Shown: piece by piece, positions 12,737 through 13,793 of the stretch
Layout: every line of letters begins with the position of its first letter
How positions within the stretch are numbered: the stretch's first letter is position 1
Assembly (NCBI GenBank): GCA_964016885.1
Contig: OZ024764.1
Coordinates: 25,854,001-25,918,000, forward strand
From: Eledone cirrhosa
Taxonomy: Eukaryota
Direction: 5' to 3'
DNA length: 64,000 bases
The notes under the pieces: model-generated
Told to the model about the DNA's origin: nothing
Seen by the model: only the letters and a program-made list of their open reading frames with translations
Databases searched by the model: none
Program-made: the position numbers and the translations under genes

Positions 12737-13793
12737 CTGGTCCATAGGTGTGGTCTTTACCTGGTCCATAGGTGTGGTATTTACCTGGTCCATAGGTGTG
12801 GTCTTTACCTGGTCCATAGGTGTGGTATTTACCTGGTCCATAGGTGTGGTCTTTACCTGGTCCATAGGTGTGGTCTTTACCTGGTCCATAGGTGTGGTCT
12901 TTACCTGGTCCATAGGTGTGGTATTTACCTGGTCCATAGGTGTGGTCTTTACCTGGTCCATAGGTGTGGTCTTTACCTGGTCTGTAGTTATGGTGGTATC
13001 TAGGGCCGTAGGTGTGGTCTGGGTCATAGTTATGGTGGTATCTAGGGCCGTAGGTGTGGTCTGGGTCATAGTTATGGTGGTATCTAGGGCCGTAGGTGTG
13101 GTCTGAGCCATAGTTATGGTGGTATCTAGGGCCGTAGGTGTGGTCTGAGTCATAGTTATGGTGGTATCTAGGGCCGTAGGTGTGGTCTGAGCCGTAGTTA
13201 TGGTGGTATCTAGGGCCGTAGGTGTGGTCTGGGTCATAGTTATGGTGGTATCTAGGGCCGTAGGTGTGGTCTGAGTCATAGTTATGGTGGTATCTAGGGC
13301 TGTAGGTGTGGTCTGAGCCATAGGTGTGGTCAGGGCCATAGGTGTGATGGTGATAGGCAGACCTGGAGTTGCGATGATGTCCTTTCTCGTATTCATCTTT
13401 CTTCTCGTATTCATCTTTCTTCTCGTATTCATCTTTCTTCTCGTATTCATCTTTCTTCTCGTATTCACCTTTGTTCTCGTATTCACCTTTCTTCTCGTAT
13501 TCACCTTTCTTGTCATAATTATGATATTCTGAATGTCCATAATTGTGTTTGTACGCTCTTTTCCCTCGAAATATCTCCTGACCATCATCAGAGTCGTCTT
13601 TCTTTCCAGATACATCTAGCTCTTTTGGGTCATACTTTACGTCTGACTGTTTTAATTTGTCAAGATATTCGGATAAAGAGACACTTTTGACATTATAATA
13701 GCTCTTCATGTCTAAGCTCTTACTGTCACCTAATGTGTTGAGCAGAGCCATCAGGATGAGGCCTGCTATAGATGAGTGGATTACGATGTTCAT
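12737..13793 (-). CDS. First coding exon of a secreted His/Tyr/Gly/Pro-rich repeat precursor (signal peptide, propeptide, RGKR, (KK[DG]EYE)x7, (DHTYGPRYHHNY[DG][SP])x8, (GK[DY]HTYGP)x10)
   Basis: ATG at 13793 starts MNIVIHSSIAGLILMALLNTLG (signal-peptide-like). About 90 aa of non-repetitive open sequence include RGKR; repeat units are 18, 42 and 24 bp. Phase-1 donor CAG|GTATTT at 12737; TATA box upstream. Confidence 0.8.

Follow-up and report, generated by a model that had tools for sequence, protein, structure and literature searches.

Can a splice donor that recurs in every unit of a coding minisatellite be used along the whole array, or does splicing settle on one unit, and does the array then belong to the exon or to the intron? 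The question is raised by a 24-bp array in Eledone cirrhosa, located at the 3' end of a predicted coding exon on the minus strand of the 64,000-nt stretch analyzed here (contig OZ024764.1, positions 25,854,001 to 25,918,000; hereafter the window). Listing all AG/GT on the minus strand from 13800 to 12500 (the slash marks the exon-intron boundary) returned 11 CCAG/GT sites 24 nt apart, with last exonic bases at 12977, 12953, and so on down to 12737, and the first intron base one position lower in each case. All 11 are in phase 1 relative to the ATG at 13793, which confirms the ladder of 11 phase-1 donors at 24-nt steps claimed in a preliminary description of this DNA. Seven sites read GTAAAG, three GTAAAT, and the terminal one GTATTT; ACCAG/GTA is present in all 11, and the sites differ at +4 to +6 (AAG or AAT at the inner sites vs. 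TTT at the terminal one), the donor being repeated in each unit as in the F7/CBS-type arrays considered below. A single position of the 24 varies across the ten units (G in seven, T in three), and the D and Y units follow in the order D D Y D D D Y D Y D. The exon side of the 12977 donor reads ...CTACAGACCAG, and the candidate exon ends joined to 8228 read ...CTACAGACCAG and ...TATGGACCAG. As had been proposed, any of the donors can be joined in frame to the Cys exon, the phase-1 join to 8228 reading VFQCG...CCTD and a stop. By arithmetic from the coordinates, the 11 donors allow products of 312 to 392 aa.

Sequence features predict that the gene encodes a precursor for secretion, composed of a signal, a pro-piece, His/Tyr/Gly repeats, and a six-Cys exon (Table 1). 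The exon 1 protein begins with a hydrophobic N-terminus and an acidic pro-piece, followed by RGKR, KKxEYE repeats, RNSR, and His/Tyr/Gly/Pro repeats, first as 14-mers and then as 8-mers. Judging hydrophobicity by eye, the N-terminus is likely signal-like; the N-terminal 93 aa are single copy in the genome. Over the 273 aa after RGKR, Tyr makes up 19%, His 16%, Gly 13%, and Asp 10% of residues. The predicted intron measures 4508 nt from the terminal donor and 4748 nt from the first.

Table 1. Features of the repeat-bearing gene (window coordinates) and of its paralog (C25 coordinates).
Feature	Position	Strand	Basis or remark
Coding exon, ATG to terminal donor, 352 codons + 1 base	12737..13793	-	Translation
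RGKR, predicted convertase (furin-type) site, aa 76-79	13557..13568	-	Translation; cleavage predicted
18-bp coding array, KK(G/D)EYE x7	13384..13511	-	Three units with AAG/GTGAAT, phase 1, U1 -6.9 kcal/mol
RNSR before SAYHHHTYGP, second predicted cleavage site	13362..13373	-	Cleavage predicted
42-bp coding array, D-type (DHTYGPR) and Y-type (YHHNYxP/S) heptamers alternating	12985..13330	-	No sense-strand donor
24-bp array, 10 units GK(D/Y)HTYGP	12734..12982	-	10 inner CAG/GTAAA(G/T) sites
Terminal donor ACCAG/GTATTT	12731..12741	-	Same as paralog donor over -5..+6; likely ancestral
U-rich intron start, T 52%, A+T 82%	12691..12730	-	Composition; putative enhancer role
Predicted phase-1 intron	8229..12736	-	From homology; holds 56-bp and 22-bp arrays
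Last coding exon, six-Cys C-x9-C-x3-C-x12-C-x5-CC	8107..8228	-	Predicted beta-defensin-like fold
Paralog exon 1	C25:25817630-25817783	+	Aligned with A0A0L8GP88, 53%
Paralog Cys exon	C25:25830632-25830753	+	49% identity, phase-1 acceptor, outside window

Several smaller features accompany the gene. TATAAAAG lies about 170 nt before the ATG (window 13958-13965, minus strand) and a pyrimidine-rich CAG 45 nt before it (window 13839-13856, minus strand); they may mark a promoter or an intron in the 5' UTR, such as most big defensin genes have. Beyond the terminal donor the frame stays open for 54 codons (window 12573-12736, minus strand), starting with a Leu-rich, membrane-like tail that is probably incidental, reflecting an (ATT)-rich tract; intron retention at this donor would yield a tailed form without the Cys domain. 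Just after the 56-bp array, at window 10981 on the minus strand, lies an acceptor-like TTTTTCCACAG/GTTCTTGA that in phase 1 would give, by eye, Gly-Ser-stop. At the Cys exon, a 286-287-nt contig, one from each of three sequencing runs of one sample, fits 8070-8231 and then continues for 78-79 letters. Simulated spliced extension from a single donor (k=31) gave 27-82 letters, with none of the 11 donors giving 78-79 (the nearest gave 82), and DNA would end in an (AT)n tract. The three runs (16-17 million contigs each) look like genomic DNA, and we gave them no weight on splicing.

The history of the ladder can be approached through relatives of the gene. Only two Cys exons were found with either query in the 3.0-Gb genome (1796 contigs), those of the window's gene and of a two-exon paralog without repeats, which has a 12.8-kb phase-1 intron and lies tail to tail with the window's gene at a distance of about 31 kb. 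A search of 1.84 billion representatives gave four matches, two of which came from Octopus bimaculoides (XP_014779245.1, 169 aa, and A0A0L8GP88, 85 aa); the other two were dropped as repeat-inflated and without the Cys pattern. The exon-1 protein had no match at E ≤ 0.001 among 7992 candidates, the Cys domain searched against longer proteins returned no candidate, and XP_014779245.1 found itself as the sole match among 23 candidates. This protein, a predicted RefSeq model, combines a signal, a pro-piece, KR (RR is also present), eight HTY(G/A)P repeats, and the Cys domain, and its KR-SYHHTYAP stands in the same place as the RNSR site. In the genome it matches best at the donor array (72-75% identity, E 3.7e-11; 43 of 61 residues match the 24-bp unit, with HTYGP-G-R facing HTYGP-G-K), and its Cys domain is closest to the window's Cys exon (54%, E 5e-7, vs. 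44% for the paralog). Because its best matches are the donor array and this Cys exon, XP_014779245.1 is likely the ortholog of the window's gene. Its matches on other contigs cover the repeat part alone, and among the 25 matches listed the motif forms an array at this locus only. A0A0L8GP88, in turn, is likely the ortholog of the paralog by sequence.

These relatives suggest which donor came first. Alignment with A0A0L8GP88 (...ITLP-E-PKCG; exon 1 53% identical) fixes the paralog junction (...RVTIP-E-PKCG), and the paralog exon 1 ends in ...RVTIP at ACCAG/GTATTT, identical to the terminal donor at 11 of 11 bases vs. 8 of 11 for the inner donors. Since the paralog exon ends with the same sequence, the terminal donor at 12737 is probably ancestral. 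The 24-bp unit, for its part, has the character of exon sequence: its two forms, D and Y, recall the corresponding halves of the 42-mer, which has no donor. The unit also resembles the ortholog repeats, including HTYGP-G-R, so the Pro-Gly step underlying the donor probably goes back a long way in the protein; the repeat region of XP_014779245.1 has four Pro-Gly steps among eight Pro, three of them followed by Arg and all upstream of the P-E junction. The ends of the array take in the GTA of the terminal donor, however, and a junction-spanning origin is thus possible, with the GTA of the unit copied from the junction rather than from a Gly-Lys codon pair.

How much of the ladder is due to chance? 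With variation among the ten units confined to 1 of 24 positions, the ladder represents one amplified event and not eleven, and the 24-nt period together with the GGT Gly codon makes the common phase automatic. Five further GGT codons in exon 1 also give phase-1 G/GT, three of them in the 18-bp array, and the probability that Pro-Gly-Lys becomes CAG/GTAA by codon choice alone is about 0.06-0.10. The 117 kb examined contained 20 further tandem arrays with a period of at least 12, at least 4 copies, and a similarity between copies of at least 85%; in three of these, one strand repeats a GT site that equals or exceeds the terminal donor in strength, and in one a site that does so for the inner donors. 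Donor-like ladders within repeats are common. The aspect beyond chance is location: the same strand, the same phase, and a position directly upstream of a donor shared with the paralog. A 72-bp array 3' of the gene (window 6963-7636, minus strand) has units with GAG/GTAAAG and forms a noncoding donor-like ladder just under the U1 threshold.

Donor strength was estimated from the computed energy of pairing with U1, whose 5' end was read from the U1 genes of this genome. These U1 snRNA genes (C2:180973544-180995099 and C1128) are arranged in tandem with a 2.67-kb period, with 42 matches in all. The ten inner donors outpair the terminal one by 1.1 kcal/mol (-8.3 vs. -7.2), in line with the earlier claim that the GTAAA sites fit the consensus better. 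Both AGGU and ACCU occur in each 24-bp unit, which is why the inner donors are predicted to be base-paired. The computed opening cost was 0.8-1.9 kcal/mol for the terminal donor vs. 1.7-4.0 for the inner ones in all four window settings. This higher cost about cancels the U1 advantage of the inner donors: net U1 accessibility falls within about 1.5 kcal/mol over all 11 sites, and several donors could consequently be used. After folding, the Boltzmann share of the terminal donor is 11-25% and that of the nine inner sites from 12953 to 12761 together 50-84%; the best net site is 12977 in two of the four folding settings, 12929 in one, and the terminal donor in one. The real codons rank 7th of 128 synonymous versions for masking and 3rd of 128 for the inner-minus-terminal gap, in a test that is post hoc, covers one unit, and turns on masking bases that are largely common to the donor-free 42-mers.

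We tentatively favor the reading in which the terminal donor is the main one and the repeats are coding, donor use being deduced here from DNA. The choice of this donor draws on ancestry, composition step, openness, and proximal bias taken together, a combination that we regard as suggestive and somewhat short of an even chance. On this reading the exon likely ends in a protein-coding minisatellite of recent origin, the 24-bp array, and splicing mainly at the last, likely ancestral donor would give a secreted precursor, predicted at 392 aa, in which ten GK(D/Y)HTYGP repeats precede the predicted beta-defensin-like domain. The inner sites would likely be incidental, created by the Pro-Gly-Lys codons CCA GGT AAA and multiplied along with the unit. 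The cell probably tolerates them: any use of them keeps the frame, in the computed folds they are paired and the terminal donor is the most open, and the terminal donor lies at a step from A/C-rich exon to U-rich intron that may assist it. Across this step the T content is 12-15% downstream of the first nine donors, 38% after the tenth, and 52% after the terminal one. According to the part of PMC3413131 available to us, the intron-proximal of two strong donors wins when they are 45 nt or more apart, but this bias is lost below about 30 nt, and the distal site is used when the proximal one is weak. Minor leakage to other donors, with forms of 312-384 aa, would be expected. Against the terminal donor stand the better U1 pairing of the inner sites, its small share in the simple Boltzmann estimate, and its top rank in just one of the four settings; its conservation, moreover, speaks for use until the birth of the array, not for present use.

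Human junction-spanning minisatellites offer a precedent for a different outcome. The portion of PMC1557585 at hand describes such arrays in F7 IVS7 (37 bp), CBS IVS13 (31 bp), 6-16, lamin B2 (100 bp), and PDGF (81 bp), in which splicing takes the most upstream donor, either by itself or together with the two after it: F7 uses the first site only, LMNB2 and PDGF the authentic site only, and CBS and 6-16 the first three. The CBS unit consists of 24 exonic and 7 intronic bases, c.1444_1467+7(16_21), as given in an excerpt of PMC2630376. By this rule 12977, perhaps with 12953, would take nearly all splicing at the Eledone locus, the octapeptides would be intronic, and the protein would be about 312 aa, an outcome that we consider unlikely. 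It is favored by the stronger U1 pairing of 12977 and its best net value in two of the four folding settings, by an exon that is already long (817 nt from the ATG), and by the GTA at the array ends; the shortened product would keep eight 14-mers and the Cys domain. However, the exon side of the first donor reads YHHNYRP and the unit KDHTYGP, unlike a plain junction duplication; the sequence past the first donor is exon-like (T 12%, A+C about 67%); the ortholog coding repeats are nearer to the octapeptides than to the 14-mers; and strong sites inserted inside the F7 exon were ignored (PMC1557585, same portion). The preliminary description had offered, as an alternative, an amplified and mostly intronic exon-intron junction. 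As an account of origin this fits less well, given that 21 of 24 bases are exon-type, that the predicted protein of the likely ortholog includes such repeats, and that the paralog-like donor and U-rich start are at the far end; as a present-day splicing outcome it is possible, since F7-type arrays use the first donor.

The array thus resembles the F7/CBS type in having tandem functional-looking donors at an exon end that face one acceptor, and differs in that its 24-nt unit is in frame and homologous to ortholog coding repeats, that only +1 to +3 of the unit match the terminal donor, and that the paralog-like donor comes last, not first. Homology likely puts the ancestral donor last and the unit among coding repeats; in the F7/CBS type, the authentic donor is first and its copies are intronic. 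Donor-repeating minisatellites are already known; what sets this one apart is a unit that is in frame and shows homology to coding repeats, the presumed ancestral donor being last. The part of PMC10078293 available to us contains nothing on donors within repeat units. The locus is in effect a natural test of two opposed splicing rules, first-site scanning, as in F7, and proximal-site preference.

Unlikely to about the same degree, though with several points in its favor, is a true ladder, in which three or more donors each serve at least a tenth of transcripts and the precursors differ by 8 residues. Since every join keeps the frame, message decay would be expected neither to prune the isoforms nor to bias their count; net U1 access is nearly flat over the sites; at 24 nt the donors are spaced too closely for position to decide (PMC3413131, in the part available); and an illustrative toy model that gives splicing to the most proximal bound site distributes use among the last 2-5 sites. 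The same toy model nevertheless falls steeply, rather than evenly over 0-10 repeats, unless occupancy is low. Further, the portion of PMC1557585 at hand holds no case with more than three sites in use, and no inner site has the +5 G that the synonymous Lys codon AAG would give, leaving no sign of selection. If the ladder were true, repeat number would be varied without allelic change. It is doubtful that the locus goes further and produces a graded set of secreted defensin-like peptides from one allele, with a coding minisatellite that carries its own donor, folding that evens donor strength, and repeat number set by splicing. Equally speculative, and in our view quite unlikely, is the associated idea that the His/Tyr repeats replace the hydrophobic domain of big defensins as a metal-binding or self-assembly module. 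That the gene model is wrong or the gene silent, through read-through to the stop at 12573 (a 406-aa ORF), another acceptor, or pseudogenization, is very improbable: the open frame past the terminal donor and five further acceptor-like sites in the intron would allow it, but both exons are intact, the two-part organization recurs in the ortholog and the paralog, and the Leu residues of the tail come from translating an (ATT)-rich tract.

The six-Cys module bears on what such a precursor might be. All six Cys are invariant across four sequences, and the exon is entered in phase 1 in both gene and paralog, with the junction placed from the relatives' predicted proteins. A structure model of the domain (pLDDT 76.7, pTM 0.45) matched defensins in 17 of 21 Foldseek rows, none of the 21 at E ≤ 0.001, and in 15 of 20 VIA-align rows, none at Z ≥ 5. 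The top VIA-align match was helianthamide (Z 4.7, rmsd 1.9, 39 aligned), and big defensin C-domains of oyster and horseshoe crab were also matched (Z 4.0 and 2.7). The remaining rows are cnidarian peptides, which we take to have the beta-defensin fold as well. Pfam gave no defensin family for any of five proteins at E up to 5, the PF14862 profile had no match in the genome, a PDB sequence search gave three rows (best E 0.88), and an Atlas search with the Cys domain gave no usable match; Atlas feature matches for A0A0L8GP88 (0.77-0.81) serve as leads only. The models thus lend weak support to a beta-defensin-like fold of the module, and the predicted architecture is that of a beta-defensin-like precursor, not a canonical big defensin.

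Like the big defensins and non-canonical beta-defensin-like peptides of molluscs, the gene has a predicted signal and a pro-piece with a dibasic end, and a six-Cys module on its own exon preceded by a phase-1 intron. The excerpt of PMC7203481 names a phase-1 intron just before the Cys module as a mark common to big defensins and beta-defensins, and mentions octopus big-defensin loci. The present gene differs in lacking the hydrophobic N-terminal domain, in place of which stands the His/Tyr/Gly/Asp-rich stretch, in having no Pfam defensin match, and in a first Cys gap of 9 residues. With squid beak proteins, which repeat GHGLY (GHGxY), it shares cephalopod His/Tyr/Gly repeats. In those histidine-rich proteins, His-Tyr contacts drive pH-dependent phase separation (PMC6884462, abstract). 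The repeats here are instead HTYGP and YHHNY, without GHGxY, and the abstract of that paper mentions no defensin-type domain. The closest relatives are the two Octopus bimaculoides proteins, XP_014779245.1 ("histidine-rich glycoprotein-like," predicted) and A0A0L8GP88 (uncharacterised), with the same Cys pattern and 51-53% domain identity; XP_014779245.1 has HTYGP repeats, eight short ones vs. three arrays (18, 42, and 24 bp) in the window's gene, and its automatically assigned name is no sign of a relationship to vertebrate histidine-rich glycoprotein. In the papers inspected we found no description of the gene, its neighbour, the HTYGP repeat, or either accession, and no paper on octopus "histidine-rich glycoprotein-like" in transcriptomes. 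By sequence, this gene and the neighbouring one seem to form a pair of octopus beta-defensin-like genes, one with His/Tyr repeats in place of the big-defensin hydrophobic domain.

Between the two defensin-like genes lies a 13.5-kb array with a 33-bp unit in about 400 copies (C25:25835860-25849434). Farther along the window, a unique stretch between microsatellites (22780-22960, minus strand) translates as ...LREWAGLRPHRDPIRLEQEVMYFPKGILKV..., and another (about 25900-26051, minus strand) as ...GGVRIKGDYSTHVDP...RCTSRVPSL...; both presumably resemble D-amino-acid/D-aspartate oxidase exons, and a further upstream gene on the same strand is possible. By eye, long reverse-transcriptase-like ORFs of non-LTR type were recognized at window 354-2881, 3996-6074, 48725-49756, and 61900-62716, and a gypsy-like gag-pol/integrase ORF at 45338-48342.
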